A stretch of 64,000 nucleotides of DNA from Nitrospirota bacterium (GCA_963840455.1 CAWIYV010000014.1:32001-96000), one strand, 5' to 3'. Numbered from the stretch's first letter, positions 23,809 to 42,245 are shown. Numbers and translations are program-made. The notes: generated by a model not told the origin, from the sequence alone.

Positions 23809-23884
23809 GGGCCGGTAGCTCAGTTGGTAGAGCACCGCCCTTTTAAGGCGGGTGTCCTGGGTTCGAATCCCAGCCGGCTCACCA
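23809..23884 (+). tRNA. tRNA-Lys(TTT)
   Basis: 76-nt cloverleaf, anticodon arm ccgcc-ctTTTaa-ggcgg, GGTTCGAATCC, encoded CCA. Confidence 0.97.
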
Positions 23885-24008
23885 GTTACCTTCGGTATTG
23901 GAAATTGTAAAGTGCAAATTGGAAATTGAAAATAAGGTTCCGGCAGTCCATCTGAGCAATTTGCATGTTGAAATTTTCAATCTGCAATTTTCAATAATCT
24001 GTAAGCAC

Positions 24009-24086
24009 GTCCCCATCGTCTAGCCCGGCCCAGGACACCGCCCTTTCACGGCGATAACGGGGGTTCGAATCCCCCTGGGGACGCCA
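24009..24086 (+). tRNA. tRNA-Glu(TTC), integration target
   Basis: gtcccc...ctTTCac...GGTTCGAATCC...ggggacgCCA. Confidence 0.96.
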
Positions 24087-24095
24087 ATCAAACCA

Positions 24096-24122
24096 AAGGA
24101 GCTGCTATTGCAGCTCCTTTTC
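24096..24122 (+). terminator. tRNA operon terminator
   Basis: aaaggagctgc-tatt-gcagctccttt plus T tract. Confidence 0.8.
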
Positions 24123-24130
24123 TTTATTGC

Positions 24131-24285
24131 GTCCCTGTCCCGTCGCGGGCCATCGCCGGTTCACGGCGCAAACGAAGGTGTAAGCGCTCAGATGAAGAGG
24201 CTTCGCGCTTCGTCGTTCAAGGTGAAAAGAGTGTTAGGTATGCCGGTTGCTCCGGCATATACGATCTAATCCCCCTGGGGACGCC
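24131..24285 (+). pseudogene. Degenerate tRNA-Glu copy interrupted by an 85-nt insert
   Basis: ttcacggcg..aacg..ggt [24180-24264] tctaatccccctggggacgcc. Confidence 0.65.
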
Positions 24286-24515
24286 CATCCAATCCAAAGA
24301 GCCACGGCATTTGCCGCGGCTCTTTTTTTGTCCCTCTTAGTGATCCATCACGTCCATACCCCGAAAATGCCCCGGCAGTATCCTTGTCAAATGGATGATT
24401 TTATAGTACGCTAATCCAAAGAACAGAGATGAAGTCCGACCAAATCATAATGCCCGAACTTCTTCGGGATAGACTTGCATAACTCAATCTTTAAGTCTGA
24501 CCCCATAGGGCACCC
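24268..24515 (+). repeat. ~240-bp islet leader, copy 1
   Basis: Near-identical to 27784-28021; contains a terminator hairpin and TTGTCA-17-TACGCT. Confidence 0.9.
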
Positions 24516-24651
24516 TTGGAGTAATCAAGACCTAAAGCAGAGCATGATTGCGAAATTTTATGAGCAGCGAAAAACTCTGTTAGCATCACGACAAATTATT
24601 ACGTGCATAGCCCAGTTGGACGAGAATCTACAGCTCATAGATCGACTGATT

Positions 24652-24855
24652 ATGAAATATAGAGAGCTCAAAAAGTTTATTGAAAAGAACATGCGGATGG
24701 CGCATGTATATCAGCCTGTAATGCTCATGACGCTGCTAGAGAATGGTGGTAAGTGCCTTGAGCGGCTGGCAAGGCATAACCCAATGGGTAATATAAATAC
24801 TAGTATCTATAGATATTCAAAATACGTTTTTATTGCTAACGAGGGGAGAATATGA
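24652..24855 (+). pseudogene. Truncated N-terminus resembling HNH/HIT-domain proteins
   Basis: FIEKNMRMAHVYQPVMLMTLL..GG motif recalled from that family; the ORF ends shortly afterwards. Confidence 0.45.
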
Positions 24856-25916
24856 CAGATAAATCAAATGATCCTAATAATAAAGCAGAGAATAAAAAAG
24901 AAGAGAATCAACCAAGCGGAAATATTCATTCTAATATTTCGAAATGGATTTATTATAATACGTCAAGCAGTAGTTATTCTCCGTCTTTAAGCTCGCTTTA
25001 CAATTATATCAATAGTAGCAATAAAAGTTGGTCAGCAATACAATGGCCAGACGAAGAAATTACTGTAAAGACGAAAAAGCTATATGAGACTATCGAGACA
25101 CTTCGTAAAGATGTAGAGGAAACTGCGAAAAAATTTCAGCAAGCCAAAAGTGAGCATGCTCAAAAAGACAGTGATATTTTGCAACTTAACGGGAAAATTG
25201 CCGAACTGTCTAAGAAGGAAAAACTCGGATTCTTGCTCTCACGAGTCAATGAAGCAGCTCAAAAATTATTGCTAGAGAACGAGGACTTTCAGAAAAAGTT
25301 CTTAGAGGAAAGCGAATGTGACACATTCGTTATGTCAGTTGATATTCGTAGGTCTACAGAGCTGATGTCGAAAGCTAGAAGTCCTGAACAATTTGCTCGC
25401 TTTATGACAACATTATGTAATGATCTTGAAGATGTTGTAAAAGATTGCTTTGGTGTCTTCGATAAATTTACAGGCGATGGCATTCTAGCCTTTTTCCCAG
25501 ATTTTTTTTCAGGCGCCGATTCGGGTTATTATGCGATAAAAGCGGCCAATCTCTGCCACAAACAATTTCAATTAAGGTACAAAGAATTTCGAAGTTCATT
25601 TAAGTCAGTTTTAACAGACGTTGGCCTAGGTATTGGGATTGATTATGGCCAAGCTCATCTTGTCCAAATAGCCGGCGGTTTAACTGTTGTTGGTTCGCCA
25701 GTGGTATACGCGTGCCGTATGAGCGGTGCTCCGGCTGATTCAACATATCTTAACCAGCCGGGCTATGAAAAAATAAGTGAGAAGTACAGTGAGTATTGCT
25801 TCTTGAAAGAGACAAAGATTGACATTAAGAATGAAGGGACAACGTTGGCCTACGATATACGTCTTAATGGGAAAGATTATAGACCCGAGGCGCCTACGTG
25901 GCTTAGCAGTAAATAG
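24852..25916 (+). CDS. Class III nucleotidyl (adenylate/guanylate) cyclase with N-terminal coiled coil
   Basis: VMSVDIRRST, DKFTGDGILAFF, GIGIDYG, TVVGSPVVYACRM. Confidence 0.85.
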   Translation: MTDKSNDPNNKAENKKEENQPSGNIHSNISKWIYYNTSSSSYSPSLSSLYNYINSSNKSWSAIQWPDEEITVKTKKLYETIETLRKDVEETAKKFQQAKSEHAQKDSDILQLNGKIAELSKKEKLGFLLSRVNEAAQKLLLENEDFQKKFLEESECDTFVMSVDIRRSTELMSKARSPEQFARFMTTLCNDLEDVVKDCFGVFDKFTGDGILAFFPDFFSGADSGYYAIKAANLCHKQFQLRYKEFRSSFKSVLTDVGLGIGIDYGQAHLVQIAGGLTVVGSPVVYACRMSGAPADSTYLNQPGYEKISEKYSEYCFLKETKIDIKNEGTTLAYDIRLNGKDYRPEAPTWLSSK

Positions 25917-25993
25917 GCTAATTGCAAAGGTGAGGAGTATGGTCCTGATAATAGCGTTAATGCCAGTGAGTATAAAATTGCGGGGGCTTCTAA

Positions 25994-26785
25994 ATGATAA
26001 AAGAATATTATGAATCATTTAAGGATAATATATTGAGCAAATCTACTAATCCATTCTTTGGCTCCTTAATTATTGTTTGGTCATTCCATAATTGGAGATT
26101 TCTATATACTATATTTAATTTCCTTAAGGAAACACCTAATGAGGATCGAATTGCATTTATCGCGAGCTATTTATATTCAGGCAAGTTTTTGCCGAATTTA
26201 GGCTGGTGTATTGTTTTCGCGTTTATAGTGCTTATCATTTCCTATTTCCTGCTTAATTTGTCTAGGCTAATTATAAACTTATATGAAAAAGTATTAACGC
26301 CATTTGTATACAAAATTACAGATCAAAGTTCCATAGTCTTAAAAGAGGATTATTTAAAACTTAATGAGGAAAAGAATAAATTGGTAGAAAAACTTGAAGC
26401 TGAACGAGGGGCTAGGCTAAATGTACAAGCCGAAAGAGATAGTCTCGAGATAAAATTAAGCCAGATGCAAAATGCTAAAAATGTGAATGATATTGCTACT
26501 ACTACTGTTACTCCGCCACCGAGTAAAAGTGATATTAATAAATATGACAAAGAAAGCGCGATTATTTCCAAGATAGAAGAAGAAAAGCTCTTAAATGCAT
26601 TCGATAATATAATCGAAAAAATATCAAATATAGATGCAATATACGATAATGAGCCTGGAGTTAGATATTTTTCAAAACTCGGTCTTATCACAAAAGGTAC
26701 CTATATTGATCAAAATCAGTATAATTATTCTTTCACGAAATTAGGAGATAGTGTAAAAACATATTATCTTGATAACTATCTTTGA
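25994..26785 (+). CDS. 2-TM plus coiled-coil hypothetical protein
   Basis: Two hydrophobic helices, a heptad-like region and a small C-terminal domain; very AT-rich. Confidence 0.75.
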   Translation: MIKEYYESFKDNILSKSTNPFFGSLIIVWSFHNWRFLYTIFNFLKETPNEDRIAFIASYLYSGKFLPNLGWCIVFAFIVLIISYFLLNLSRLIINLYEKVLTPFVYKITDQSSIVLKEDYLKLNEEKNKLVEKLEAERGARLNVQAERDSLEIKLSQMQNAKNVNDIATTTVTPPPSKSDINKYDKESAIISKIEEEKLLNAFDNIIEKISNIDAIYDNEPGVRYFSKLGLITKGTYIDQNQYNYSFTKLGDSVKTYYLDNYL

Positions 26786-26881
26786 ATAAGAAATAATATA
26801 CGTACGATGGTTCTTCACTTTAATTAGCTATCTTGTGCACGAACAGCTTTTGAATAGAATAAATCAACTTAATGCTGCATC

Positions 26882-27079
26882 TGAAACGTCACCAAAACGT
26901 AACCGAAATTAACTTACAGCAGATGAATGGCAGAATAATACTGGACAGAATAGAAGTGTGTAACGCATTGATTAGCACTATTAAAGCGAAAAAAAGCAGG
27001 TAAGAGACCCGGTTAGTAAAATCGTTAAGTTCTAACTTTCACGGCGATAGCAGGGTTTCGAATCCCCTCGAAGACGCCA
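26882..27079 (+). repeat. att-like arm plus tRNA-Glu 3' copy (degenerate)
   Basis: acgtcaccaaaacgtaacc...caggtaagag...ttagtaaaatcgtt...ctttcacggcgat; homologous to 27606-27802 and 41851-42245. Confidence 0.85.
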
Positions 27080-27178
27080 GCCAATCCAGGGACATGCTGG
27101 TATTCGGTAGCGCATCAACACAACCGATACCGATTTATGGTAGAATTAATCATTCGGTAAGTGCAAAGGGGGTAGGCC

Positions 27179-27532
27179 ATGAAGAAAATCGTATTTGCAG
27201 TAATTGCAGTCCTTTTATCAATTGGTGCGGCTCAAGCTCAGGATTATTTGCACGGCAAGTCCGGAACCACATATCAAAATATTGGAAACACAACCTACGG
27301 CTCGGATGGTTCAACTTATCAAAAAATTGGCAATACGACATACGGGAATGATGGGAACACTTCCCAACGGATTGGGAACACAACTTATCATGGAGATGGA
27401 TCGACATCTCAGCAAATTGGGAACACACTTTACAATTCCAATGGTAGCACCGTTCAAAAAATTGGCAATACAACGTACGGTTCTGATGGAACCAACTGCC
27501 AGAAAATAGGCAATACAACGTACTGTAACTAA
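27179..27532 (+). CDS. Small secreted protein with six 15-aa QKIGNTTYGSDGxxx repeats
   Basis: Signal peptide ending AQA; clear tandem repeats. Confidence 0.85.
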   Translation: MKKIVFAVIAVLLSIGAAQAQDYLHGKSGTTYQNIGNTTYGSDGSTYQKIGNTTYGNDGNTSQRIGNTTYHGDGSTSQQIGNTLYNSNGSTVQKIGNTTYGSDGTNCQKIGNTTYCN

Positions 27533-27605
27533 ATTGTCTGATATTTGCCTCTCTACACTGACATCTGATGAGAAAATGTGTGTGCAAACGGGTATAGCTA
27601 GTAAT

Positions 27606-27802
27606 TGAAAACGTAACCAAAACGTAACCGAAACTAACATACGGGGTAGAATAACAAGAAAATACTTGAATGGGCAGAAGCCAATAACTCTTTGATTATT
27701 GCTAATAAACAGAAAAACGCAGGTAAGAGGCCCATTTAGTAAAATTGTTAAGGCCCAACTTTCACGGCGATAACGGGGGTTCGAATCCCCCTGGGGACGC
27801 CA
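27606..27802 (+). repeat. att-like arm plus perfect 44-bp tRNA-Glu 3' copy
   Basis: acgtaaccaaaacgtaacc arm; 27759-27802 is identical to the tRNA-Glu 3' end. Confidence 0.9.
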
Positions 27803-28021
27803 ATCCAAAGAGCCACGGCAACTGCCGCGGCTCTTTTTTTTCTCCCTCTTAGTGATCCATCACGTGCATCCCCCGAAAATGCCCCGGCAGTATCCTTGTC
27901 AAATGGATGATTTTATAGTACGCTAATCCAAAGAACAGAGATGAAGTCCAACCAAATGCCCGAACTTCTTCGGGATAGACCTGCATAAGTCAATCTTTAA
28001 GTCTGACCCCATAGAGCACCC
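27784..28021 (+). repeat. ~240-bp islet leader, copy 2
   Basis: Near-identical to 24268-24515. Confidence 0.9.
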
Positions 28022-28075
28022 ATCCTCGCAAAGAAAGATGCGAAGAAAGCTGGGAAAGCAGTTCCCTCTAGGGAT

Positions 28076-28348
28076 GTGGATGATAAATTTCTGATCGCGG
28101 ACAAAAGCAATAATAAAGACAAAATGACATTGAGTGATTTCATTTATCATCATGTCTCATGGTCATACGACCTGTGGCATATGAGACGCTTTGGCTTAGT
28201 CTTGCCAAATCCAGAGGTGATTAATCAACAGGATAGTGTATTAGTTGGCGGCTTTTCATATATCTACGAAGACAAAATACTTGATGCGATGCGGTCGTCT
28301 GAATTCCTTCTTAAACGAGAAGGCGGTGGACGCAGAGGCAAGCGATAA
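28076..28348 (+). CDS. Hypothetical ORF or gene remnant
   Basis: 90-aa ORF behind the leader; no recognisable motif. Confidence 0.3.
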   Translation: MDDKFLIADKSNNKDKMTLSDFIYHHVSWSYDLWHMRRFGLVLPNPEVINQQDSVLVGGFSYIYEDKILDAMRSSEFLLKREGGGRRGKR

Positions 28349-29312
28349 ACATGCAGACTCTAATTCCTATGATAGCGCATGCTAGGACCCTGCGCATTCC
28401 CTCGGTTACTTACGGGGCGCTATATCCTAAAATACGCACTCCTCAGTACCGCGTTCACGTTTAATTTTCAACCAGTAGACTGCACCTCTTTTGATAAACC
28501 GTCCTATGCAATCATGTAGGTGTTCATCACAGTGCCTAGGATCTGAAAGCGTCGAAGAATATCGTTTGAAATATGCAGTGTCTGATTCTTCCTGTACTCG
28601 TTGAAGCTTCCATTCATCGCAATATTCAATATTTCATTCAGTAATTCGTAATCTCCCTAACAACCAGACGGTATTGTTTTAATTGCTGTGGTGTTTCGTG
28701 ATAACTGGTTGTCATCGTTAGGATGACAGGTAAGGGAAGGGCCTTATTTAGTCACTGATGATGCCTGTTTATGGCTGTCTACTTGACAATTACTTGACAG
28801 CGAATCTAAAGAGCAATCTAAGCGGGTCCATCGTGCTGTTAAAAGCGGAAAAGCAATTAAATATTGTTAAGAAATTGTTTTTAATTATTTGTATTGACCT
28901 TGACAGAATATCAGCAGCCTGTTAGCCTTGTAATACTTACTTCCTACTGCTTGCCTCTTATTTAACTTGCCACATTCTTTATTCTGTTTTTTCTCTGATA
29001 TTTTCTTTTTCTGAGAAAACCGAACGGGTGTTTTTGCGTTTCAAGTATCAACACTTTTAATCTATTTATTATTTTAATAGGACTCATTCTATCAGCCATT
29101 ATCTATAGCTCTGCGGTATGGCCAATTCATTTTAATAACCAGTATTTCAAATCAGAGCGTTCATGATCATGTGTTGTACCAAGTGGTTCGTTTCTTTCAT
29201 TGATTCTTACCAACAAGTACTTTCAATGCTGATATTGCGTGATATTAGAAGTTTAGGTGTTGCGCGTGGTATATACGAGCAATAAGGAAATATAATTTTG
29301 GGAGGTGTTGCA

Positions 29313-32300
29313 GTGAAAAAATTAATATCGATAGCAGGAATGCTCGTAATAGTTTTATGCGCAATATCCGCGTGGGCGGGTCCATTCTCGGCCACGAATC
29401 CAATGACTTCAGCAAGGTTTCTTCACACCGCAACCTTACTCCCGAATGGCAAGGTGCTGATCGTGGGGGGATACAATAACTCTATAACCTTTAATACCGC
29501 CGAAGTATACGATCCCGCAACCGGAACCTTCACAGCCACTGCAGGGAATATGATGTCAGCGAGGCATTATCACACCGCAACCTTACTCCCGAATGGCAAG
29601 GTGCTGATCGTGGGGGGGCGAAACGGGGACATTTGGTTGAATACCGCCGAAGTGTACGACCCACAAACAGGAATCTTCACAACTACAACAGGGATTATGA
29701 CTTCAGTAAGGAATAATCACACAGCAACGCTGCTCCCGAATGGCAAAGTGCTAATCACGGGGGGGTGGGGTGGCAACAGCTTCTTGAATACTGCGGAAGT
29801 ATACGACCCCGCAACAGGAATTTTCACTGCCACGATGGGAATCATGACCTCAGCGAGGGGGAATCACACTGCAACCCTTCTCCCGAATGACAAGGTATTG
29901 ATTGCAGGGGGATACAGCAACACCGATTTAAAGACTGCCGAAGTGTACGACCCTGAAACTGGAACCTTCACAGCCACTGCGGGGAATATGACTTCAGCGC
30001 GGTCTTATCACACAGCGACCCTCCTCCCGAATGGCAAGGTATTGATCGCGGGAGGATGGGGCAACTATTCAGTAAGCACCGCCGAAGTGTACGACCCCAC
30101 AAACGGAATCTTCACAGCCACGGCGGGGAATATGACTTCAGTACGGAATCAGCATTCATCAACCCTGCTTCCCAATGGCAAGGTACTGATAACAGGGGGG
30201 CACAATGGCAGCATCTGGTTGAATACCGCCGAAGTATACGATTCCGTAACTGGAACCTTCACAGTCACTGCGGGGAATATGATATCAGCAAGAGGTTGTC
30301 AAAGCGCAACTCTGCTCCCGAATGGCAAGGTACTGGTCGCTGGTGGGCACGGCAACAGCGTTTACTTGGATACTGCCGAAGTATACGACTATGCCTTCGG
30401 AACTTTCACATCCACGGCAGGGAATATGACTTCAGTAATAGAACCTCGCACCGCAACGCTGCTCCCAAATGGCAAGGTATTAGTAGTAGATGGGGCTGGG
30501 AGGCTTACCGCCGAATTGAACGACCCTTTAACCGGAACCTTCACAGTTACGGGGAATATGGCTTCATATAGGAGGGGAACGTTCACCGCAACGCTCCTCC
30601 CAAATGGCAAGGTGCTGGTCGCGGGGGGAGGCCAAGATTTAGTAGGCGGCGTGAATAGAGCCGATGTGTATGATCCCGTAACAGGAACCTTCACAGCCAC
30701 TGCAGGGAACATGACTGGAGGAAGGGGTACTCACACTGCAACACTTCTCCCGAATGGCAATGTGTTATTAGCGGGGGGGATGGCCAGCGATTGGTTGGCT
30801 ACCGCGGAAGTGTATGACCCCACAACCGGAATCTTCACAGCCACGGGGAAGATGCATTCAGCAAGGGGTGCTCACACCGCAACTCTGCTCCCGAACGGCA
30901 AGGTATTGATTGCCGGCGGGATGTATGGTTCCTATGGCCAAATTAACTTAAATACCGCTGAAGTGTACGACCCTGAAACTGGAACCTTCACTGACACGGG
31001 GAATATGACATCTGAGAGATCTTATTCATCCGCAACGCTGCTCCCGAATGGCAATGTATTGGTTGCAGGTGGGGCAAGAGGCGGAACTGCGGAACTGTAT
31101 GACCCTACCACCGGAATCTTCGCAAGCACAGGGAACATGACTTCAGCAAGATTTCAACATAGTGCAACATTACTTTCGAATGGTAAGGTGTTGATCGCGG
31201 GGGGCGACTATCCCGTTAATACCGCCGAAGTGTACGACCCAGCAACAGGAGTCTTCACAGCCACGACAGAGAATATGACTTCAGCAAGGGGTGCTCACAC
31301 CGCAACCTTACTCCTGAATGGTAAAGTGCTGATCATGGGGGGGAATTTCTCGAATACCGCTGAAGTGTACGACGCTACCCTTGGTTTTTCCGATGCATGG
31401 CGCCCCGTTGTTGATCCTATCTCTTCAGCCATAATAATAGGCAAGTCACTCTCGATCACCGGCAGCGGTTTTACTGGCTATGGAAACTCCGAAGGCTCCA
31501 GCGGAGCGACGAATAATTCTGCCACCAATTTCCCCCTGGCTCAGCTCAGAAGCATTGACAGTGGACAGACGCTCTGGCTCCAGACCGCGCCGGTTGCAAA
31601 TGGTTCTACTGTAACATCAATTACGACAATGCCTGTTGAAAATTTTCCGGCGGGTCCTTCCTTGCTTACAGTGTTTGTCAATGGTATTCCTAGCGTCTCC
31701 AGCTACGTCACAGTTGAAAATATTTCTGAGACCACAGGTGTTTATTCCATCACGGCCAGCTCCAGTACAGGTGGCAGCATCTCGCCGTCGGGGAACTTGA
31801 ATGTCAATGCAGGTGGCACTGCGTCATTCACCATCACCCCAAATCCGGGGTACCAAGTGCTGAGTGTAATCGTTGATGGTGCGAACAAAGGGGCGGTAAA
31901 CAGTTATAGTTTTACGAACGTAGCGGGGAACCACACAATCAGCACCTTTTTCAAGCCGATTACCTATACGATCACGGCAACGGCAGGAGCGAACGGCGCC
32001 ATCAGCTCTCCGGGCGTGAACACAGTGAATCCTGGCAGCAGCAAAAAATTCACGATCACGCCTACTGCCGGGTATCATGTTGCCGATCTGCTAGTTGATG
32101 GAATGTCACAGGGAGCGTTGAGTTCATACACCTTTACGAATGTGACCGCGAATCGTACTATCTCGGCCATATTTGCGGAGAATGCCTGGTTCCTGATCAA
32201 TGCCAGCGCAGGGCTGAACGGTACTATCTCGCCGTCGGGCATGGGATCTGTGCTGGCCGGCACCAACCAGAAATTCACCATTACGCCGGCAACAGGGTAC

Positions 32301-34517
32301 CGTGTGGCTGATGTGAAGGTTGACGGGATATCTGTGGGTGCGCTAACCTCATACACATTCAACAGTGTCCAGACAGCCCATACGATTGGTGCGTCCTTCA
32401 CGCTGAATGTCTATACCATCACAGCCGCAGCAGATGTGAACGGCAGCATCACGCCGTCGGGTACGGTAACGTTGAACCCTGGAGGCAACGGAGCCTTCAC
32501 AATTGCGCCGAATCCAGGGTATCAGATTTCTGGCGTGATCGTGGATGGCGTTCAGAAGGGTGCCATAACCAGTTATTCCTTTACAAACGTCTCAGCGAAC
32601 CACACCATCAACGCCTACTTCAAGGTGATGACCTTTACCATAATGGCAAGCGCTACGACCGGTGGCGGCATCAGCCCGGCGGGCATTCGTATCGTGAACT
32701 ATGGGATCAACCAGACCTATATGATCACCCCGACCGTGGGATACACTACAGTCGACGTCCAGGTCGATGGGGTTTCACAAGGCGCAGTGGCTACGTACAC
32801 TTTCACGAACGTAACGGCGAACCACACGATAGCGGCAACTTTTACAACAAACTCCTCGAACACCATCACAGCCAGCGCGGGGCCGAATGGCACTATATCG
32901 CCAACCGGCTCGGTGTCAGTACTGAGCGGAGCGTACAAGAAGTTCACCTTCACACCGAATGCAGGCTACCGCGTGGCTGATGTGCTCGTAGACGGAGTAT
33001 CGGTGGGCGCCAGGACCTCGTACACGTTCAACAGCGTCACGTCGGATCACACGATCAGCGCGTCCTTCACGCTCGATGTCTATACCATCACTGCGACAGC
33101 GGATGTCAATGGGAGCATCACGCCGTCCGGTACAGTAACAGTGAATAAAGGTGTCAGTCAGACCTTCATGATTACCCCGAGTGCGGGATTCCAGGTGCGT
33201 AGCGTGATTGTCGATGGTGCAAACAACGGCTCCGTGACCACCTACACCTTCACGAACGTCACGGGGAACCATAAAATCGATGTGTTCTTCATGGTGACAC
33301 CATTTAACCCTCATGGCACACTTGATACCACATTCGGCACCGCTGGCAAGGTGACTACGGCAATCGGGACCAACTATGAACTTGCTGCTGCTGTGGCGAT
33401 TCAGACCGACCGCAAGATCGTGACAGTAGGAACTTACAACGGCAGCGGCAACTATGAGTTCGCTCTTGTCAGGTACAATAGCGATGGAAGCCTCGACACT
33501 TCCTTTGGTTCTTCCGGCAAGGTGACCACGTCGATCGGGGACGGTGATGACTTCGCTAATGCAGTGGCGATTCAGACTGACGGCAAGATAGTGGCTGCAG
33601 GGGTCGCTAAGAGCGGTAACCAAAATTCTTTTGCCCTTACCCGATATAACACCGACGGAAGCCTCGATACTTCCTTTGGTTCTTCCGGTAAGGTGACTAC
33701 GGCATTTGGGATCTTTGATGACCACGCTTATTCAGTGGCAATCCAGACTGACGGCAAGATCGTGGCAGCGGGGTATGCAGATATAATTGGCAGCCAAAAT
33801 TCTTTTGCTCTTGCCCGATATAACACAGACGGAAGCCTCGATACCTCCTTTGGTTCGACCGGCAAGGTGACCACGTCGATCGGGGGTGGTTTAGGTTCTG
33901 GTGCGTATGCAATGGCAATCCAGACTGATGGCAAGATCGTGACAGCGGGTTTTGCTAATGACGGCGTCAAAAATTCTTATGCTCTTATCAGATATAACAC
34001 CGACGGAAGCCTTGATACTTCCTTTGGTTCTTCCGGAAATGTGATTACAGCAATCGGGACAAGTTATGATTATGCTAATGCAGTGGCAATCCAGGCTGAC
34101 GGTAAGATCGTAGCAGCAGGGAGTGCAAATAACGGTGCAAGAAATAATTTTGCTCTTGTCCGGTACAATAGCAACGGGAGCCTCGACACTTCCTTTGGTT
34201 CTTCTGGCAAGGTGACTACGACAATCGGGAGTAGTGATGACTTAGCTTTTGCAGTAGCGATTCAGAAAGACAGTAAGATCGTGGCAGCAGGCTATGCTAT
34301 GAACGGCAGCCAAAATTCTATTGCCCTTATACGATATAATACCGACGGAAGCCTCGATACTTCCTTTGGTTCTTCTGGCAAGGTGACTACAGCAATTGGT
34401 ATCAGTAATGATGTGGTTTATGGAGTGGCAATCCAGAGTGATGGTAAGATCGTGGCAGTAGGACAGTCCGACAACGGCAGCAACTTTGATTTTGCCCTTG
34501 CGCGCTACATGCCGTGA
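29313..34517 (+). CDS. Giant secreted protein: 14 Kelch/galactose-oxidase-type repeats, 7 InlB-B-like stalk repeats, 7 delta-60 repeats
   Basis: Signal peptide; HTATLLPNGKVLIAGG x14; YTITA...G.ISP.G...V.VDG...YTF.NV x7; GSLDTSFG...AIQTDGKIV x7; GGAGG before GTG 29313. Confidence 0.9.
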   Translation: MKKLISIAGMLVIVLCAISAWAGPFSATNPMTSARFLHTATLLPNGKVLIVGGYNNSITFNTAEVYDPATGTFTATAGNMMSARHYHTATLLPNGKVLIVGGRNGDIWLNTAEVYDPQTGIFTTTTGIMTSVRNNHTATLLPNGKVLITGGWGGNSFLNTAEVYDPATGIFTATMGIMTSARGNHTATLLPNDKVLIAGGYSNTDLKTAEVYDPETGTFTATAGNMTSARSYHTATLLPNGKVLIAGGWGNYSVSTAEVYDPTNGIFTATAGNMTSVRNQHSSTLLPNGKVLITGGHNGSIWLNTAEVYDSVTGTFTVTAGNMISARGCQSATLLPNGKVLVAGGHGNSVYLDTAEVYDYAFGTFTSTAGNMTSVIEPRTATLLPNGKVLVVDGAGRLTAELNDPLTGTFTVTGNMASYRRGTFTATLLPNGKVLVAGGGQDLVGGVNRADVYDPVTGTFTATAGNMTGGRGTHTATLLPNGNVLLAGGMASDWLATAEVYDPTTGIFTATGKMHSARGAHTATLLPNGKVLIAGGMYGSYGQINLNTAEVYDPETGTFTDTGNMTSERSYSSATLLPNGNVLVAGGARGGTAELYDPTTGIFASTGNMTSARFQHSATLLSNGKVLIAGGDYPVNTAEVYDPATGVFTATTENMTSARGAHTATLLLNGKVLIMGGNFSNTAEVYDATLGFSDAWRPVVDPISSAIIIGKSLSITGSGFTGYGNSEGSSGATNNSATNFPLAQLRSIDSGQTLWLQTAPVANGSTVTSITTMPVENFPAGPSLLTVFVNGIPSVSSYVTVENISETTGVYSITASSSTGGSISPSGNLNVNAGGTASFTITPNPGYQVLSVIVDGANKGAVNSYSFTNVAGNHTISTFFKPITYTITATAGANGAISSPGVNTVNPGSSKKFTITPTAGYHVADLLVDGMSQGALSSYTFTNVTANRTISAIFAENAWFLINASAGLNGTISPSGMGSVLAGTNQKFTITPATGYRVADVKVDGISVGALTSYTFNSVQTAHTIGASFTLNVYTITAAADVNGSITPSGTVTLNPGGNGAFTIAPNPGYQISGVIVDGVQKGAITSYSFTNVSANHTINAYFKVMTFTIMASATTGGGISPAGIRIVNYGINQTYMITPTVGYTTVDVQVDGVSQGAVATYTFTNVTANHTIAATFTTNSSNTITASAGPNGTISPTGSVSVLSGAYKKFTFTPNAGYRVADVLVDGVSVGARTSYTFNSVTSDHTISASFTLDVYTITATADVNGSITPSGTVTVNKGVSQTFMITPSAGFQVRSVIVDGANNGSVTTYTFTNVTGNHKIDVFFMVTPFNPHGTLDTTFGTAGKVTTAIGTNYELAAAVAIQTDRKIVTVGTYNGSGNYEFALVRYNSDGSLDTSFGSSGKVTTSIGDGDDFANAVAIQTDGKIVAAGVAKSGNQNSFALTRYNTDGSLDTSFGSSGKVTTAFGIFDDHAYSVAIQTDGKIVAAGYADIIGSQNSFALARYNTDGSLDTSFGSTGKVTTSIGGGLGSGAYAMAIQTDGKIVTAGFANDGVKNSYALIRYNTDGSLDTSFGSSGNVITAIGTSYDYANAVAIQADGKIVAAGSANNGARNNFALVRYNSNGSLDTSFGSSGKVTTTIGSSDDLAFAVAIQKDSKIVAAGYAMNGSQNSIALIRYNTDGSLDTSFGSSGKVTTAIGISNDVVYGVAIQSDGKIVAVGQSDNGSNFDFALARYMP

Positions 34518-34666
34518 TGGATGGCAGCCATTATGATGGGCAACATGCGTGTAACCAATTGTTCATGTCGTGACGATAGGAAGTTCCAAATAGTGCGATT
34601 CTTTCACAGCTTTGACCTTATCACAAGAGACTTGACGGAAGGTCTTATTTCAGGAGGTAAAGGACA

Positions 34667-37600
34667 ATGGTAAAAAGAACATTATTAATCTCCTTCTTAT
34701 GTTTTTTTGCGTATTCAAACTATGCTTATGCTGCCCCTACCTTGACTGATTCGACGAATTACCGAATCGAACTTCTTGCCACAGATATTGGGGCTGTCGA
34801 TGGCCTTACATTTAATAGTTCAGGTGATTTGTACTTTACAGATTATCAGAATTGGAGGGTTTTAAAAATAACAGCACCTTCGCAACCTGGTACTCATTCT
34901 TATGAGGTAGTGGTTGCTACAGGGATTTCCTATCCCGTAGATCTTACATTTAACCAAGAGGGGAGACTATTTGTCACTTCCGATACCAACAATGTTGTTG
35001 AGGTCCTGCCAAATGGAAGTACTCCTATTTATTCGACAGGATATTCTTACCCTAGCGGCATAACATCGTACGGTAACACCCTCTTTGTTTCAAACAGTGG
35101 TAATGGCACTATATCAAAGATAGACTCCCTAGGTAATAGCTCCCTTTTTATTTCAGGATTAAGCTCACCTTATGGCCCCTATCACGCATCAATCGACGTT
35201 TTGGGGAATCTATATTTTGTCGACCATGGTACAGGAAGGCTCTATTCTTCAGACCAGTCTGGGAATATAACATATCTTAATAATTCGGTATCTCCTTTTG
35301 GTGGGACATTCACAGCGGTTGGCCCTAATGGGGATATTTTCATAAGCGACTGCAACGCAGGAGCTGTGTATAAAATCGACAAATCAGGCAATAAGACGCT
35401 TTTTGCTTCGGGATTTATTGGTAAATCAACTCCGCCTGTTATCGGGCCAACAGGCATTGCATTTGATAGCAATGGGAACATGTATATTGCCGATGGCAGT
35501 AATATTTGGAAAATAACAGCGTCAAATTATGTGCTTCATATCGTTTCAAAAGGATCAGGATCCGGCACAATTAATTATTCGACTGACATCTCTGGAAACG
35601 AGTGTATTGGAGATTGCAGTCAGTCGTTCCCGGATGGCACAGTAATTACACTCAATGCAAATCCCACTCAGGATTCATTATTTGCTGGTTGGCTCGGCTG
35701 TGAATCTTTAACTGCCAAGCAATGCACTCTAACAATGTCTAGTGACACGCAGGTTGTGGCATATTTTTCAAAGCGTCTTAATCCAGGCGAAATTGGATTT
35801 GAGCCAACCCAAAATTTCATGACGACAGAAAGAGATCAGCATGCAACAGTCTTACTTCCTGATGGGAAAGTATTGATTACAGGAGGCCGGCACTGGTTAG
35901 GTGTTGCCGATGGAACACCAGTAAATGCTGCTGAAATTTATGATCCTGTATCTCAGACGTTTTCCCCTGCGTTAGGAAGTATGAATATTGCAAGAAGCGG
36001 TCATAGGGCGATATTATTGTCAAACGGGAAGATATTAATCGTTGGCGGAAGCACTACGTCTGAACTATATGATCCAAATACGGGTTTGTTCTCAGTCTCA
36101 GGTAGTGTTATGGCCACAATACCTTATCGTGAAGCTATAGTTCAACTGAAAAATGGGAAGGTGTTGTTAGTGGGGGGCAGTGACTATTTTGTTCCATCGA
36201 CATCAGTAGATATCTATGATCCTGTCACAGACACGATTAGTTCAGCTCCCAATTCAATGAATATAGCGAGAACTTATCCTGATGCGACATTGCTTTCAGA
36301 TGGAAGAGTTTTAATAACGGGTGGAACAGCTTTAGCAACAACTGGTAGTCGCAATAGTAATATTCTCAAAAGCGCAGAGATATATGATCCAGAGCAAGGA
36401 ACTATCACCTTGTTAAGTTCAACAATGACAGTCCCTAGATATTTTCACAGAGCGACATTGCTCAATGATGGTACTGTATTAATTACTGGAGGTTGGTCTA
36501 AAGATCAAAATGGAATCGACAACATTAATACAGATATCGCGGAGATATTTAATCCGAGCAATAATAACTTTGAGCCTATTTCGAATAAATTAACATCAGC
36601 GAGAGGAACTCATACGAGTACGAGATTGCCCGATGGTAAAGTATTGCTCGCTGGTGGAGCAGGGACGGATTATATGGTAAACAATATTGCTGGTGAAACA
36701 GCTGACATATACGATCCAAGTTCGAAAAGTTTTACTTCAGCTCAAATGAGTTTTACACGCAGTATACATACCGCTACCTTGCTGCCAAACCATACAGTTT
36801 TTATATGCGGAGGATTTTTTTACGTAGCCAACGGATACAATACCAATAGTGCTGAAATTTATTATCCTGCTTACTCGGGCTACCTCATCACGGCCACAGC
36901 AGGTAGCCATGGCAGCATCAATCCGTCAGGGATTCTGAATGCCAATGCAGGCAGCAACGCGTCATTCACGATCACCCCGAATGCAGGATACATGGTGTAC
37001 AGCGTGCTCGTCGATGGTGTCCAGAAGGGCGGCATTACCAGCTACACCTTCCAGAACGTGAAAACGGACCATACAATCGATGCTTATTTTAAGCCGATCA
37101 CCTATACCATCACGGCAACAGCAGACGCGAATGGCGCCATCAGCACCCCGGGAGTGAATACGGTGAATCCCGGGAGCAGTATGACTTTTACGATCACGCC
37201 CACTGCCGGGTATCATGTTGCCGATCTGCTAGTTGATGGAGTGTCGCAGGGAGCGTTGAGTTCATACACCTTTACGAATGTAACGGCGAATCGCACTATC
37301 TCGGCCATATTTGCGGAGAATGCATGGATTATCATCAATGCCAGCACCGGGCCGAACGGCACTATCTCGCCATCGGGCAACGGATCTGTGCTGGGCGGCA
37401 CCAACCAGAAGTTCACCATCACCCCGGCTGCTGGATACCGGGTGGCTAATGTGGTTGTTGACGGCGTATCCAAGGGAGCACTGACCTCGTACACCTTCTA
37501 TAGCGTCCAAGCCACCCATATAATCAGCGCATCCTTTGTGCTTGATGTTTACTCCATCACTGCAACTGCCGATGCTCACGGCAGCATAACGCCGTCGGGG

Positions 37601-39463
37601 ACACTGATGGTGAACAGCAGAGATAGTGCCAACTTTACGATCACTCCGGATACTGGATACCAGGTGCAGAGCGTTATCGTTGACGGTGCGAACAGGGGTA
37701 CCATGACGAGCTATACCTTCAACAACGTGATGGCAGACCACACTATCAATACCTATTTTAAGCCTATCACATACACCGTTGCGGCCACAGCAGGAAGCGG
37801 AGGCAAGATCAGCCCGCCGGGCACCAGCACGTTTAATGTTGCCGCCAGCCAGATCTACAGCATCACACCCACTGCCGGGTACCACGTAGCCGACGTGACA
37901 GTTGACGGCGCATCCCAAGGTGCGGTGACGAGCTATACGTTCACGGACATACGGGCAAACCATACTATCTCGGCCACCTTCGCGGCGAATAACGGATACA
38001 CCATCACTGCAAGTGCCAGCGGGAACGGCGCAATCTCACCGTCGGGCAGCGTACCAGTCCTCGCTGGAGCCAACCAGAAGTTCACCTTCACACCGGCAGC
38101 AGGGTGTCGGATCTCTGATGTGACTGTTGACGGAGCATCGGTGGGTGTGCGGACCTCATACACCTTCTATAGCGTCCAGGCGGTACATACGATAACGGTC
38201 ACCTTCGTGCTTGACGTATATACCATCACTGCTGCAGCGGACGTCAATGGGAGAATATCACCGGCGGGCACGATCAAGGTAAATAAGAACGGGAGCCAGA
38301 CCTTCACGATTACTCCGAATGCGGGCTATCAGGTGTCGAATGTAATCGTAAACGGATCAGCAAAGGGTGTGATAACGAGCTATACGTTCATGAACGTTAC
38401 GGCGAACTACACCATCAACGCTTACTTCAAGCCGCTTCCAATAAAGCTCATGGGTGGCTCGGTACAAGGAGTTCAACTTAGTCTTTCAAATGTTGTCACC
38501 ACATTTGCTGGGTCGGCTGGTCTAGGAGGCTCAGCAGACGGCACAGGATCTGCCGCAAGGTTCAACTATCCCTACGGATTAACCGCAGATGGAATAAACC
38601 TCTACGTTGCGGATACGGGCAGCAGTACCATCCGCAAGATTGTTATCTCCACCGGTGAGGTTACAACCCTGGCAGGTTTAGCCGGAATAGAAGGCTCAAC
38701 AGACGGTATCGGATCTTCCGCAAGGTTCGGTGAACCTTGGGGTCTTACCACGGATGGAACGAATCTCTATGTAGCGGATACGCTCAATCAGTCAATCCGC
38801 AAGGTAGTGATTTCCACAGGCGAGGTTACTACGTTGGCAGGTTCAGCAATAGGACCGGGCTGCTCCAATGGCATAGGATCCGCAGCAAGGTTCTATAATC
38901 CTGGATCACTAACCACGGATGGAACAAGCGTCTATGTAATGGATATGTGTGCCAATCTTCGCAAGATCGCAATCTCTACAGGTGAGGTTACTACTCTGGC
39001 AGGTTCATCAAGTCATGGCTATGCTGATGGCATAGGGACCGCCGCAAGTTTTAGTGGTGGTAGTGTAACCACAGATGGAACGAACATCTACGTGTCGGAA
39101 AATGAGAACAATACCATCCGCAAGGTAGTGATTTCCACAGCCGAGGTTACCACCCTGGCAGGTTCCGCTGGCGTAGCAGGCTCAACTGATGGCATAGGAT
39201 CCGCTGCAAGGTTTAATGGTCCTTGGAATATTACTACGGACGGCACGAACCTATATGTCTCGGACATGTTAAATCAGACAGTTCGCAAGATCGTGATTTC
39301 CACCGGAGCGGTTACCACCCTGGCTGGTTCTGTAGGGATCGTGGGATCAAGCGATGGCACGGGACCTACAGCACTGTTTAATTATCCTTGGTCTATTACG
39401 ACGGATGGGCACAGTCTGTATTTGACAGATGGCCACAATCATACTGTACGAAAAATTCAGTAG
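34667..39463 (+). CDS. Giant secreted protein: NHL-like propeller, 7 Kelch repeats, 7 stalk repeats, C-terminal NHL-like propeller
   Basis: Signal peptide; repeat motifs visible in the translation (TTLAGS...ARFN.P...TTDGTNLYVAD). Confidence 0.9.
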   Translation: MVKRTLLISFLCFFAYSNYAYAAPTLTDSTNYRIELLATDIGAVDGLTFNSSGDLYFTDYQNWRVLKITAPSQPGTHSYEVVVATGISYPVDLTFNQEGRLFVTSDTNNVVEVLPNGSTPIYSTGYSYPSGITSYGNTLFVSNSGNGTISKIDSLGNSSLFISGLSSPYGPYHASIDVLGNLYFVDHGTGRLYSSDQSGNITYLNNSVSPFGGTFTAVGPNGDIFISDCNAGAVYKIDKSGNKTLFASGFIGKSTPPVIGPTGIAFDSNGNMYIADGSNIWKITASNYVLHIVSKGSGSGTINYSTDISGNECIGDCSQSFPDGTVITLNANPTQDSLFAGWLGCESLTAKQCTLTMSSDTQVVAYFSKRLNPGEIGFEPTQNFMTTERDQHATVLLPDGKVLITGGRHWLGVADGTPVNAAEIYDPVSQTFSPALGSMNIARSGHRAILLSNGKILIVGGSTTSELYDPNTGLFSVSGSVMATIPYREAIVQLKNGKVLLVGGSDYFVPSTSVDIYDPVTDTISSAPNSMNIARTYPDATLLSDGRVLITGGTALATTGSRNSNILKSAEIYDPEQGTITLLSSTMTVPRYFHRATLLNDGTVLITGGWSKDQNGIDNINTDIAEIFNPSNNNFEPISNKLTSARGTHTSTRLPDGKVLLAGGAGTDYMVNNIAGETADIYDPSSKSFTSAQMSFTRSIHTATLLPNHTVFICGGFFYVANGYNTNSAEIYYPAYSGYLITATAGSHGSINPSGILNANAGSNASFTITPNAGYMVYSVLVDGVQKGGITSYTFQNVKTDHTIDAYFKPITYTITATADANGAISTPGVNTVNPGSSMTFTITPTAGYHVADLLVDGVSQGALSSYTFTNVTANRTISAIFAENAWIIINASTGPNGTISPSGNGSVLGGTNQKFTITPAAGYRVANVVVDGVSKGALTSYTFYSVQATHIISASFVLDVYSITATADAHGSITPSGTLMVNSRDSANFTITPDTGYQVQSVIVDGANRGTMTSYTFNNVMADHTINTYFKPITYTVAATAGSGGKISPPGTSTFNVAASQIYSITPTAGYHVADVTVDGASQGAVTSYTFTDIRANHTISATFAANNGYTITASASGNGAISPSGSVPVLAGANQKFTFTPAAGCRISDVTVDGASVGVRTSYTFYSVQAVHTITVTFVLDVYTITAAADVNGRISPAGTIKVNKNGSQTFTITPNAGYQVSNVIVNGSAKGVITSYTFMNVTANYTINAYFKPLPIKLMGGSVQGVQLSLSNVVTTFAGSAGLGGSADGTGSAARFNYPYGLTADGINLYVADTGSSTIRKIVISTGEVTTLAGLAGIEGSTDGIGSSARFGEPWGLTTDGTNLYVADTLNQSIRKVVISTGEVTTLAGSAIGPGCSNGIGSAARFYNPGSLTTDGTSVYVMDMCANLRKIAISTGEVTTLAGSSSHGYADGIGTAASFSGGSVTTDGTNIYVSENENNTIRKVVISTAEVTTLAGSAGVAGSTDGIGSAARFNGPWNITTDGTNLYVSDMLNQTVRKIVISTGAVTTLAGSVGIVGSSDGTGPTALFNYPWSITTDGHSLYLTDGHNHTVRKIQ

Positions 39464-39842
39464 TTGGATGATCCGAGTTTAGACAGCGACTTTATGATCT
39501 ACCCCTAGCATTGTGCCAATTGGAGAGTTGTCATTCGATTAGATTTTAAAGTAACCATGAACGGGCAGAAATGACCTTATCTCATCCGAGGTAAGGTCTT
39601 ACTGTTATTTGCGGGAGAGCATGAGAATCGAACAATATAGATAATATTTTGTTATAACGATGTATTAATTCGTTCGGTTTTGCTAGGTACCCCATAAAAT
39701 ACCCCCATCCTTTTGCGCCCACAGCATCACCGGCGGTGCGATCATATAGCATCTTATTAATTCGAAACACTTACAACTTATGTCATGCTTATCGCCAAAA
39801 AAACTGCCAGGGGTGCTAATCTTACAGTGAAAGGAGAAGTTT

Positions 39843-40256
39843 ATGTTAAAGAGAAGTTGGTTAAGTATTTTGGGTTTATTGCTGTTTGTGATGGCCATCG
39901 TAGCAGGTTGCGGAGGCGGCGGAGGAGGTTCCTCGTCACCACCGGCGAATATAGGTGGTACATGGAGCGGCTCATGGTCAAGTAGCATAGTTGCTCAATC
40001 TGGCAGCGTTGCTGCGACTGTTTCACAGTCTGGCACCACTTTCTCTGGCAACATATCAATAGGCAACTCTCCTTGTTTTTCAAATGGTACTATCACCGGC
40101 GGCACCGTTTCAGGTAATAGGGTCAGTTGGAGTGCCACAGGCATAGGCAATTTTAGTGGAACTGTATCTGGGACTTCACTAACCGGGACCTACTCTGTGA
40201 CCCTAGCCGGCATTTGCTTCGGTGATAATGGAAACTTTTCAGTTACTATCCATTAA
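39843..40256 (+). CDS. Gly/Ser-rich lipoprotein
   Basis: Lipobox VAGC followed by GGGGGG; AAGGAG RBS. Confidence 0.8.
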   Translation: MLKRSWLSILGLLLFVMAIVAGCGGGGGGSSSPPANIGGTWSGSWSSSIVAQSGSVAATVSQSGTTFSGNISIGNSPCFSNGTITGGTVSGNRVSWSATGIGNFSGTVSGTSLTGTYSVTLAGICFGDNGNFSVTIH

Positions 40257-40611
40257 TTTGGCTTTTTAATACAACCAGAATCCTTTGTCATCGTCAAATC
40301 TTTGGCATTGCAAAATAGTAGGTGTACTCAGCGGAGGCATTGGGCTTATCCGTACCGAAATTGTGCAGTTCGTGTGTCAGTTACATTGAAAGCGATAATT
40401 AAAGAAAGGGCCTTATCTCATCCGAGGTCAGGCCTTTTCATTTACTTTCTGTGCAAAGTTAATTTCCAATAGTTTCATTGTGTCCATTTTGTGTCCAAAC
40501 TGATGTAATCAGTAGAATCAATGTAATAGATGTAAGATCGTATCTGCCTGAAAATGCAAGAGAGTGGGGGAGCAGGCCTAATGTCAAACCCTTACAAAAG
40601 TGATTTATTCA

Positions 40612-40657
40612 CCCTTTCACGGCGATAACGGGGGTTCGAATCCCCCTGGGGACGCCA
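40612..40657 (+). repeat. Perfect 46-bp tRNA-Glu 3' copy (att core)
   Basis: Identical to the tRNA 3' end; upstream arm-type direct repeat tgtgtcca-ttt-tgtgtcca near 40480-40498. Confidence 0.92.
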
Positions 40658-40699
40658 TTCAAATTCAGGAGTTAGCCAACGGCTAGCTCCTTTCTTCTT

Positions 40700-40792
40700 T
40701 AAAAACGTAGCAGAACGTAGTTCCCTGGCGTCCAGAACGTTTACCGCATCCCTCAAGTTCTCCGGTGACAGATGACTATACCGCAGGGTCAT
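40700..40792 (-). pseudogene. C-terminal remnant of a tyrosine integrase
   Basis: MTLRYSHLSPENLRDAVNVLD resembles the catalytic-Tyr segment; it points towards the att core. Confidence 0.7.
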
Positions 40793-40948
40793 ACGGAAAT
40801 GCCAGTTAAAACTACCTCTTTGCTTACCTGCCCAGATTGCTACTGCATGTATTTTAATACTTCAACAATATAAGGCAGGAGAGATAGGACGTGATAGAAG
40901 CCTCATTTCAAGGTTCGGAATACACCTAGAAAACAAACAAATAAAGTA

Positions 40949-40977
40949 TTGACAAAATATATAGTTCAGTATACAAT
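40949..40977 (+). promoter_or_regulatory. Sigma70 promoter
   Basis: TTGACA-17 bp-TACAAT. Confidence 0.65.
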
Positions 40978-41147
40978 TATCCACAATGGAATCACTTTCT
41001 GCATACCTGCTGCCTGGAAGGGACTAATATCAACGCATGAAATATATTGCGGAGATCAAGTCAGGTCCATTCAGTGAAGGCCTTAGTTAACTCTGACAAA
41101 CTACTAGCATTATAACTTCGTATCATGAAGAAAGGAGCAATGAAACG

Positions 41148-41603
41148 ATGAAAATCATCTCGATAATCATAATCTGTGCCATTTTTGTGTCTGGGTGTGC
41201 ATCAATGTTTCATGGTACTAAAGATACCGTCTATGTTAGAAGTAATGAGCCAGAAACTACTTTTTACGCTAACAATCGTGAAATTGGTAAAGGGACCAAT
41301 GCAGTTGTAACTATTTCGAAAAATAAACTTGATTCTACAATATTGCGAGCAGAAAAAGCAGGTTGCAATGAAAAAACAACAGCGATAGAAACCGAATTTG
41401 ATGCAACGACTCTTCTTGGTATATTGATTGATTGGGGCATTATTTCGATACTTGTTATCGATTTTGGTGTAAATGGAGCTACAAGCAGAGTCGCACAAAA
41501 CGACTATGTCCTGACCCCAGAATGTGTGAAGCCATCCCAGAAGCTAATTCAACCAGCATTGCAACCTCAGCCCCAGGTATCGCAGCAGCCTGCGCAGATG
41601 TAA
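41148..41603 (+). CDS. Lipoprotein (PEGA-like)
   Basis: Lipobox VSGC-ASMFHG; AAGGAG RBS; terminator at ~41655-41680. Confidence 0.75.
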   Translation: MKIISIIIICAIFVSGCASMFHGTKDTVYVRSNEPETTFYANNREIGKGTNAVVTISKNKLDSTILRAEKAGCNEKTTAIETEFDATTLLGILIDWGIISILVIDFGVNGATSRVAQNDYVLTPECVKPSQKLIQPALQPQPQVSQQPAQM

Positions 41604-41850
41604 TTTAACAAAATCAGGGAATAAGATATATCACATAAATATAAAGAATTATTCGGGTCTGGGAAACCAGACCCTTTTTTATTCCTCATCATCCTGTTTC
41701 TTTGTGGTATCAGAGGCTGATGATGCTGATTAAGCGTTGGTTTTGCTCCTTCATGAGTTATCTATTTTTTAGACCAACCATTCAGGCTGATTCATACAAG
41801 GAGAATCACCTCTTCATGTAATCGCACAGTACGATGTACTAAACAATGTT

Positions 41851-42245
41851 ATAACGTAACAAAAACGTGACTGAAGCTAGCTTACCGTCTAGAATAACTG
41901 GAAAATACTGGACTGGATAGAAGTAGATAAATCGTTGATTATCGCTAATAAATAGAAAAACTCAGGTAAGAGGCACATTTAGTAAAATCGTTCAGTTTCA
42001 ACTTTCACGGCGATAACGCGGGTGTAAACGCTCAGATGAAGAGGCTTCGCGCTTCGTCGTTCAAGGTAGAAAAAAATATTAGGTATGCCGGTTGCTCCGG
42101 CATGTACGATCGAATCCAGGAGCGAGCGCATTCCCCGTTAGCTTGCTAGGGGGGTTAGCGAGCGATTAGGATAAACAATCTTCCCTGAGGATCGAAGATT
42201 CCCTGCAGCTCTCAGCAGGGAGCTTCAATCCCCCTGGGGACGCCA
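41851..42245 (+). repeat. Terminal att-like arm plus tRNA-Glu 3' copy carrying two inserts
   Basis: Arm homologous to 26882 and 27606; 86-nt insert at 42024-42109 and palindromic element at 42115-42228 inside the T arm. Confidence 0.85.
42115..42228 (+). mobile_element. PATE-like miniature element inserted in the tRNA fragment
   Basis: Removing it restores tcgaatccccctggggacgcca exactly. Confidence 0.8.

Follow-up and report, generated by a model that had tools for sequence, protein, structure and literature searches.

How a row of unrelated genes came to lie behind a single tRNA gene, set off from one another by copies of the 3' part of that gene, and whether the row can still move, is the question raised by positions 24009-42245 of a 64,000-nucleotide (nt) stretch of a Nitrospirota bacterium genome (GCA_963840455.1, CAWIYV010000014.1:32001-96000; hereafter the window). 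Here, four segments, A to D, follow an intact tRNA-Glu(UUC) gene. A preliminary description of this DNA had proposed that they are minimal cassettes, captured in integron fashion by an integrase acting in trans. Our results pointed to another origin: the array was probably built by repeated integration of tyrosine-integrase-type islets at one site, followed by their decay, and would be a fossil in this genome. The features that bear on this reading are the following, where a core is a copy of the 3' part of tRNA-Glu.

24009-24086, plus strand: intact tRNA-Glu(UUC) (ARAGORN), the assembly's sole intact UUC gene and source of the repeated core
24131-24286, plus strand: tRNA-Glu-like unit ('PsiGlu'), from alignments and a structure model
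24287-27079, plus strand: segment A, with leader L1 (24287-24515), right arm (26884-27035) and diverged core (27036-27079)
27080-27802, plus strand: segment B, with a gene (27179-27532), right arm (27609-27758) and exact core (27759-27802)
27803-40657, plus strand: segment C, with leader L1 (27803-28021), right arm (about 40460-40611) and exact core (40612-40657)
40658-42245, plus strand: segment D, with a terminator (40667-40691), a gene (41148-41603), right arm (41853-42003) and composite core (42004-42245)
40721-40798, minus strand: C-terminal stump of a tyrosine integrase, 26 codons (tblastn; nucleotide alignment with the 3' ends of relatives' integrase genes)
42004-42245, plus strand: right boundary, a composite core made of a 3'-half start (42004-42023), an insert (42024-42111), a dispersed repeat and the terminal 18-mer (42227-42244)
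42112-42229, plus strand: copy of a dispersed 118-bp repeat, inside the T-loop region of the right-boundary copy

Throughout, G-codes denote genomes of relatives (G000 being the genome under study) and L-codes the contigs or records compared, several of them metagenomic; the genus set comprised six genomes, including the one under study, and the family set 64.

The 43-nt 3' part of tRNA-Glu occurred exactly three times in the window (at 24044, 27760 and 40615) and its terminal 18-mer five times (24068, 24268, 27784, 40639 and 42227; none expected), while neither appeared in 100 shuffles. The five 3'-half copies described earlier are therefore real repeats, beyond chance, although the two short ones, 24265-24286 and 42224-42245, proved to be the downstream pieces of long copies into which a T-loop insert is set; their 5' parts lie at 24160-24174 and 42004-42018. 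In self-comparison, 24160-24272 and 42004-42117 were 90% identical. With this second insert copy at the right boundary, both outermost repeats contain the insert, while the three copies between them are plain 3' halves of the tRNA. The core at the A/B junction (27036-27079) is a diverged copy (84% identity); read by eye, it departs from the resident tRNA in the 3' strand of the acceptor and in the T stem, and its differences look like those of another host's tRNA-Glu rather than random decay. The composite right boundary is directly preceded by the right arm of segment D. A BLAST search of the genome gave 287 hits to the hairpin-rich 118-bp repeat lodged within this boundary, 183 being 100 nt or longer; further copies lie in the window at 42499-42614, 16280-16547 and 49972-50084, and the metagenome contig L072 holds the first half of the repeat at the matching position.

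The ends of the segments were as previously described. A, B and D share one right arm, hereafter alpha (26884-27079, 27609-27802 and 41853-42023; 76-82% identity in self-comparison), A and C begin with one leader (24265-24515 vs. 27781-28021; 91% over 252 nt), and C closes with an arm of another kind (about 40460-40611), not related to alpha. The first 40 nt or so of the A/C leader correspond to the terminator hairpin that trails tRNA-Glu, or the tRNA-like unit, in relatives; an exact 29-mer of L1 had no match in the metagenome contigs. The sharp end of the leader homology is marked by a 23-nt motif (24483-24505 and 27989-28011), also found in this genome at C11:835063, C4:120234 and C10:127322, and in G068 and G047; at C4 and C10 it lies about 25 nt past a GC-rich hairpin. 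It may resemble transposon terminal repeats.

With regard to composition, the fraction of guanine plus cytosine was 0.31-0.56 across 24.3-42.2 kb, compared to 0.58-0.64 in the flanks and 0.579 in the whole genome. Like a tRNA-integrated island, the array has the intact tRNA at one end and a 3'-part repeat at the other, with DNA between them that is foreign in composition and absent from the same site in relatives. Segments A to D are thus foreign, low-GC insertions bounded by tRNA-derived att-type repeats with arms.

The identity of the inserted elements was indicated by segment D. Its stump is 73% identical to residues 317-342 of a 362-amino-acid (aa) integrase of G060 (E 6e-8 in a 19-kb database), so that D is a remnant, about 1.6 kb long, of an alpha-type island; the stump includes the R-Y-x-H tyrosine motif of integrases. 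Further, the D leader aligned with the 3' ends of relatives' integrase genes. The alpha arm was present in G060, G076 and G046, and a pattern search of the genome contigs for it returned G076 and G060 only. A check suggested in the preliminary description showed this arm beside an intact integrase elsewhere: in G060, an island of about 9.8 kb runs from tRNA-Glu through a D-type leader, the 362-aa tyrosine integrase facing the tRNA, and cargo to the alpha arm and a 3' half. G077 likewise has an alpha-type integrase (71% identical), situated next to a D-type leader and a copy of the core.

AACGTARC repeats are found in pairs in these elements, one pair at the far end of the alpha arm, the other just past the terminator in the D-type leader. 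Read by eye, the variants at the two ends of an element agree in G060, G046 and G076; the repeats are plausible arm-type integrase sites. In the window, the right arm of A has AACGT(C/A)AC repeats at 26885-26903, that of B has AACGTAAC at 27610 and 27621, and the leader of D has AACGTAG repeats at 40704-40721. A and B carry such repeats on the right only and lack the leader-side repeats of intact elements.

Decay of the same kind was observed in relatives. Seven integrase stumps lie beside tRNA-Glu fragments in five of them (G003, G012 twice, G076 twice, G046 and G016:C14); the G016:C14 stump holds stop codons, and G017 has a truncated open frame of 160 aa. Intact integrases adjoin tRNA-Glu or a core in G060, G076, G071, G016:C2, G015, G077 (two) and G010, and the arrays of G076, G071 and G010 mix integrase-bearing with integrase-less segments. 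At G010:C15 (L025 59-1525), the integrase open frame runs into tRNA-Glu on the opposite strand, and its last 13 residues are tRNA-encoded. The preliminary description had set its cassettes against decayed pieces of large islands; segment D, with its stump, is such a piece, and stumps of the same kind recur in relatives.

In the history that we propose, the single tRNA-Glu(UUC) gene and the tRNA-Glu-like unit just downstream would have formed a hot spot at which at least four tyrosine-integrase-type genomic islets integrated successively. Each integration would have left an element arm and a copy of the tRNA 3' part, displacing older elements outward, and the elements would then have decayed by deletion until all integrase genes were lost. 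D would have kept both alpha-type arms and the 26-codon stump, A and B the alpha right arm only, and C a different right arm. The mixed ends (L1 with the alpha arm in A, L1 with the other arm in C) would most simply stem from deletions that removed junctions and fused neighbours, or from recombination between related elements. As with cis-mobilizable elements (CIMEs), the array could move only if a cognate integrase arrived from outside; such mobilisation in trans is possible. Our results show the repeats, the foreign composition, the varied occupancy in relatives, the intact homologous islands, the stumps and the lack of an integrase here; from these we infer the sequence of events, the fusion of elements through deletions and the array's immobility today.

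The same site was then compared among relatives, for which the chromosomal landmarks are given below.

23809-23884, plus strand: tRNA-Lys(UUU) (ARAGORN; Rfam tRNA, 73.3 bits), upstream chromosomal anchor
24095-24120, plus strand: tRNA-Glu terminator hairpin
42255-42283, plus strand: chromosomal terminator after the array
42663-43385, plus strand: response-regulator/PilZ (RR-PilZ) gene (Pfam), downstream chromosomal anchor

The left flank comprises serA, purA and both tRNAs, and the right flank RR-PilZ and a BrkB/cyclic nucleoside monophosphate (cNMP)-binding gene. While the purA-tRNA-Lys-tRNA-Glu synteny is kept across the family, the DNA beyond it differed in every genome examined; RR-PilZ synteny was seen in G004, G005, G023, L068, L070, L072 and L075. 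In G023, the RR-PilZ homologue aligned from 429 nt past tRNA-Glu, so the site is empty. G004 holds an islet of about 1.9 kb with a RelE/HigB-like gene (identified by eye), and G005 a 3.7-kb islet inside the true tRNA-Glu, the tRNA-like unit there adjoining RR-PilZ. Unrelated DNA occupies the site in G001 (more than 20 kb, where the island abuts the 5' half of the tRNA-like unit) and in G003 (at least 7.5 kb). Four same-genus contigs carrying the site had no PF00589 match, and extra tRNA-Glu 3' halves lie on the tRNA contig of many family members, e.g., G046, G054, G060, G066, G071, G076 and G077. To this extent the earlier reading was borne out: the segments are foreign DNA, and the site is empty or otherwise occupied in G023, G004, G005, L071 and L074.

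Whether the array can still move depends on its integrase. The segments had been called integrase-less, and indeed neither an intact recombinase nor a PF00589 match was found within 24009-42245, although D keeps its stump. PF00589 matched six times in the whole genome, namely two intact proteins, 40% identical to each other and resembling a Xer pair, and four fragments; the serine recombinase families PF00239 and PF07508 had no match in the genome. At E<=1e-20, an alpha-integrase query found nothing in any of the six genomes of the genus and matched 17 of the 64 family genomes. The assembled genome therefore holds no candidate cognate integrase. With Xer-like proteins as the only recombinases, Xer-dependent (IMEX-type) integration was considered; it was rejected in view of the tRNA origin of the junctions and the dedicated integrases of relatives. 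Elsewhere in this genome (C14:532749-533158), a degraded integrase fragment with stop codons lies about 100 bp downstream of a tRNA-Ala(CGC), and this site is predicted to be another decayed island.

The strongest competing explanation, which we nevertheless consider rather unlikely, is that the segments are live, mobilisable cassettes equivalent to CIMEs, i.e., units devoid of an integrase that are excised, reshuffled and re-integrated at cores of the tRNA-Glu type whenever a related island with an integrase is present in the cell or population. Several observations favour it and weigh against a fossil array. The left edges of A, B and C fall exactly at a core, which is predicted by the integration of units that were already small and not by random deletion. 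Over 43 nt, the cores at 27760-27802 and 40615-40657 do not differ from the tRNA, which leaves C in particular formally excisable, and D retains both arm types. A tblastn search of 24000-42700 with eight integrase-region open reading frames (ORFs) of relatives (E<=1) detected no recombinase remnant in A, B or C, so that for these three, an origin by decay is proposed from the parallel with D and with relatives. With 14 contigs, it is possible that an integrase lies in an unassembled gap. The mixed arrays of G076, G071 and G010 also fit mobilisable units.

Signs of turnover came from L072 as well. This contig ends with 2.46 kb that match 42341-44796 at 96.9% identity. At its start, 510 nt match, at 94.5% identity, a 'delta' arm found on contig C10 of the genome under study, and between this arm and the RR-PilZ flank it carries the T-loop insert and half of the dispersed repeat. 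On C10, the delta arm adjoins a plain tRNA-Glu 3' half, whereas in L072 and L066 it is joined to a T-insert copy. C10 itself bears a 3.6-kb insertion (G000:C10:67793-71423; L078 7793-11423), absent from the same site in G003, that holds a repeat with 99-100% identical copies elsewhere in the genome and the delta islet (ending in arm, plain 3' half and terminator), where ARAGORN calls a 72-nt tRNA-Glu. The joins in L072, with its 97% identical flank, and the lack of the C10 insertion in G003 therefore suggest recombination with a breakpoint in the core, within or near the species. L072 thus points to recent core recombination and not to a long-dead site, and turnover at the cores within the species is plausible.

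However, L072 is a single short metagenome contig. Neither this genome nor, with the alpha query, the five others of the genus yielded a cognate integrase; leader-side arm repeats are missing from A and B; and the cores are damaged, that between A and B being diverged and that at the end of D interrupted by the insert and the dispersed repeat. Together with the stump in D and the lack of attC and intI at the array, these findings also spoke against minimal cassettes captured in integron fashion by a trans-acting integrase. Successive integration followed by decay remained the better account.

The left boundary of the array turned out to be an unusual element. The stretch 24087-24286, formerly counted as a first segment, is not a cassette but the terminator of tRNA-Glu followed by the complete tRNA-Glu-like unit. 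The ends of the unit resemble those of an acceptor stem, a GC hairpin stands where a tRNA has its D arm, one stem is like that of an anticodon arm, and the T-loop carries an insert of about 90 nt with two hairpins (about 24181-24267). The order tRNA-Glu (or its 3' half), terminator, tRNA-like unit and second terminator is repeated in G005, of the same genus, and in the metagenome contigs L067, L068, L069, L071, L073, L074 and L075; the unit is contiguous with tRNA-Glu in L069, L074 and L075, and with a displaced tRNA-Glu 3' half in G005. In L071 and L074, it is directly followed by the post-array terminator (42227-42313 here; 90% identity), and therefore the array appears to lie between the 3' end of the unit and this terminator, with the unit as its left boundary.

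Searches of Rfam (E<=1 on 23600-43000; E<=10 on 24087-24335) returned only tRNA-Lys, tRNA-Glu and noise, i.e., no family for the unit. Among the 64 family genomes, blastn matches covered the insert proper only within the genus. The unit is 83% identical between G000 and G005, and the remaining spacer before RR-PilZ did not align; by this comparison, it is better conserved than neighbouring non-coding DNA. The insert hairpins showed compensatory differences, by eye, in the G004 and L070 variants. Among nine unit copies, 88% identical, a double change was found in only one of 44 predicted pairs. The RNAalifold model shows complementarity between the invariant central part of the insert and the region of the anticodon arm. 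Other insert-bearing copies occur at G000:C9:279272-279420, in G005 (L023 15724-15885), in G004 (L022 2417-2605) and in L066-L075. Full units always lie just after tRNA-Glu, or a displaced 3' half, and its terminator; partial units (the 3' two-thirds) adjoin unrelated arms, and L067 has three tRNA-Glu-like units in succession.

The unit could be an RNA or an att-site component. A bolder proposal, to which we give a smaller chance than to live cassettes and which we regard as quite unlikely, is that it is a maintained landing pad, i.e., a second attB that spares the essential tRNA-Glu(UUC) and co-evolves with insert-bearing islands, or else an undescribed structured RNA, and that the units behind it are exchanged among strains core by core by visiting integrases, as at a tRNA-anchored, integron-like site.

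Could the repeats have arisen without site-specific integration, by segmental duplication, gene conversion or homologous recombination among tRNA-Glu-like sequences? The L1 leader copies, 91% alike with sharp ends, and the T-insert copies at the two array ends, 90% alike, are what such a process would leave. However, the contents of the segments are mutually unrelated and compositionally foreign, the junctions (arm, 3' half and terminator) match those of relatives' integrase-bearing islands, and D holds the integrase stump; this already disfavoured explanation is very unlikely. A misjoining of contigs at the repeated cores, of a kind known to confuse short-read assemblers and conceivable in a 14-contig draft (rated 100% complete), is scarcely credible, since exact repeats span only 43 nt, longer ones differ by 9-24% and are distinguishable, the array lies inside a 597-kb contig, and independent genomes, including the one-contig chromosome G076, show the same architecture.

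The cargo of the integrated and decayed islets comprised the following ORFs, in addition to the genes of B and D.

24475-24855, plus strand: ORF of segment A
24852-25916, plus strand: ORF of segment A, class III cyclase, PycC-like
25994-26785, plus strand: ORF of segment A
28076-28348, plus strand: ORF of segment C
29298-34517, plus strand: ORF of segment C
34667-39463, plus strand: ORF of segment C
39843-40256, plus strand: ORF of segment C, lipoprotein-like

In segment A, the 354-aa product of 24852-25916 is a class III nucleotidyl cyclase whose N-terminus is a coiled coil; it matched PycC in PADLOC (E 1.3e-11) and the adenylate cyclases 2w01 and 3r5g in the PDB (E 4e-5 to 4e-4), with no Pfam match at E<=0.01. 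The product of the next gene, 25994-26785, has 263 aa, two stretches of which look hydrophobic by eye; neither a cyclic-nucleotide-binding domain nor a family match beyond noise was detected for it in Pfam, PADLOC or NCBIfam. The two may form a Pycsar-like pair. A 268-nt contig of a freshwater-sediment metagenome run was 99.6% identical to 26313-26580, the other matches being tRNA or dispersed-repeat fragments only. Segment B, as described before, holds a single credible gene (27179-27532), whose 117-aa product has a signal-peptide-like start and six or seven repeats and is predicted to be secreted. The giant proteins of segment C (1739 and 1598 aa) contain Kelch, InlB-B-repeat, DUF5122 and NHL repeats, and the gene of D (41148-41603) is lipoprotein-like (phrog_6823, E 4e-6). 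This predicted cargo is typical of islands: a Pycsar-like pair in A, giant surface proteins of the Kelch type in C, and in B and D small proteins, secreted or lipoprotein-like. In the left part of C, a non-coding stretch (about 28450-28800) was 72-88% identical to many loci in many family genomes and also matched C13:74558 and C9:212578 of G000; a six-frame look revealed no reading frame common to relatives, a stop codon interrupts the conserved part at about 28508-28666, and Rfam gave no match.

Taken together, the locus shows a tRNA hot spot of an uncultured Nitrospirota that gathered defence and surface-protein genes and then lost the integration machinery, which is useful for annotating 'orphan' islets. 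It also calls for caution, as integrase-less arrays are not each a new capture system; here, one stump and intact relatives reveal the history. Of all its features, only the tRNA-like unit with its conserved T-loop insert might open onto something new.

The array belongs to a known kind, as a new family in Nitrospirota: it looks like integrating islands in a decayed state, and such islands are a recognised route by which bacteria gain accessory and defence genes. PMC5704250 describes CIMEs as arising by integration, loss of the integration genes with att sites kept, and accretion of the next element. Like the CIMEs of the ICESt1/ICESt3 paradigm reviewed there, the elements of the array follow one another from the 3' end of a target gene, with integration genes lost and att sites kept: C is flanked by two exact cores, and D has a matching leader and arm. 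Derivation by deletion is based on the stump and extends to D only. Unlike CIMEs, the array has no functional partner element in its genome, A and B keep one arm type only, and the parent elements, which were not examined for transfer genes, have no known conjugation or mobilisation genes. According to bioRxiv 10.1101/2020.12.28.424599, the tycheposon islands of Prochlorococcus are stacked tRNA-targeting elements with fragmented integrases and scattered partial tRNAs; there, as proposed for our array, successive integrations at one tRNA displace older ones, and the cargo is adaptive or defensive. The Nitrospirota array belongs to a different phylum and has, besides the tRNA, an adjoining tRNA-like unit that appears to act as a boundary. 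As regards the cargo of segment A, the resemblance to Pycsar lies in a class III cyclase that matches PycC profiles and is followed by a small membrane-type protein, in contrast with which this second protein has no detected cyclic-nucleotide-binding domain and the cyclase falls below the Pfam threshold of E 0.01. Finally, the array shares with integrons a row of accessory gene units at one place, some of them with a single gene. It differs from them in that it has neither intI nor attC but direct repeats of the tRNA 3' half with arms of about 150 bp, in that its units measure 0.7-12.9 kb, several with more than one gene, and in that the genome holds only Xer-like proteins and fragments.

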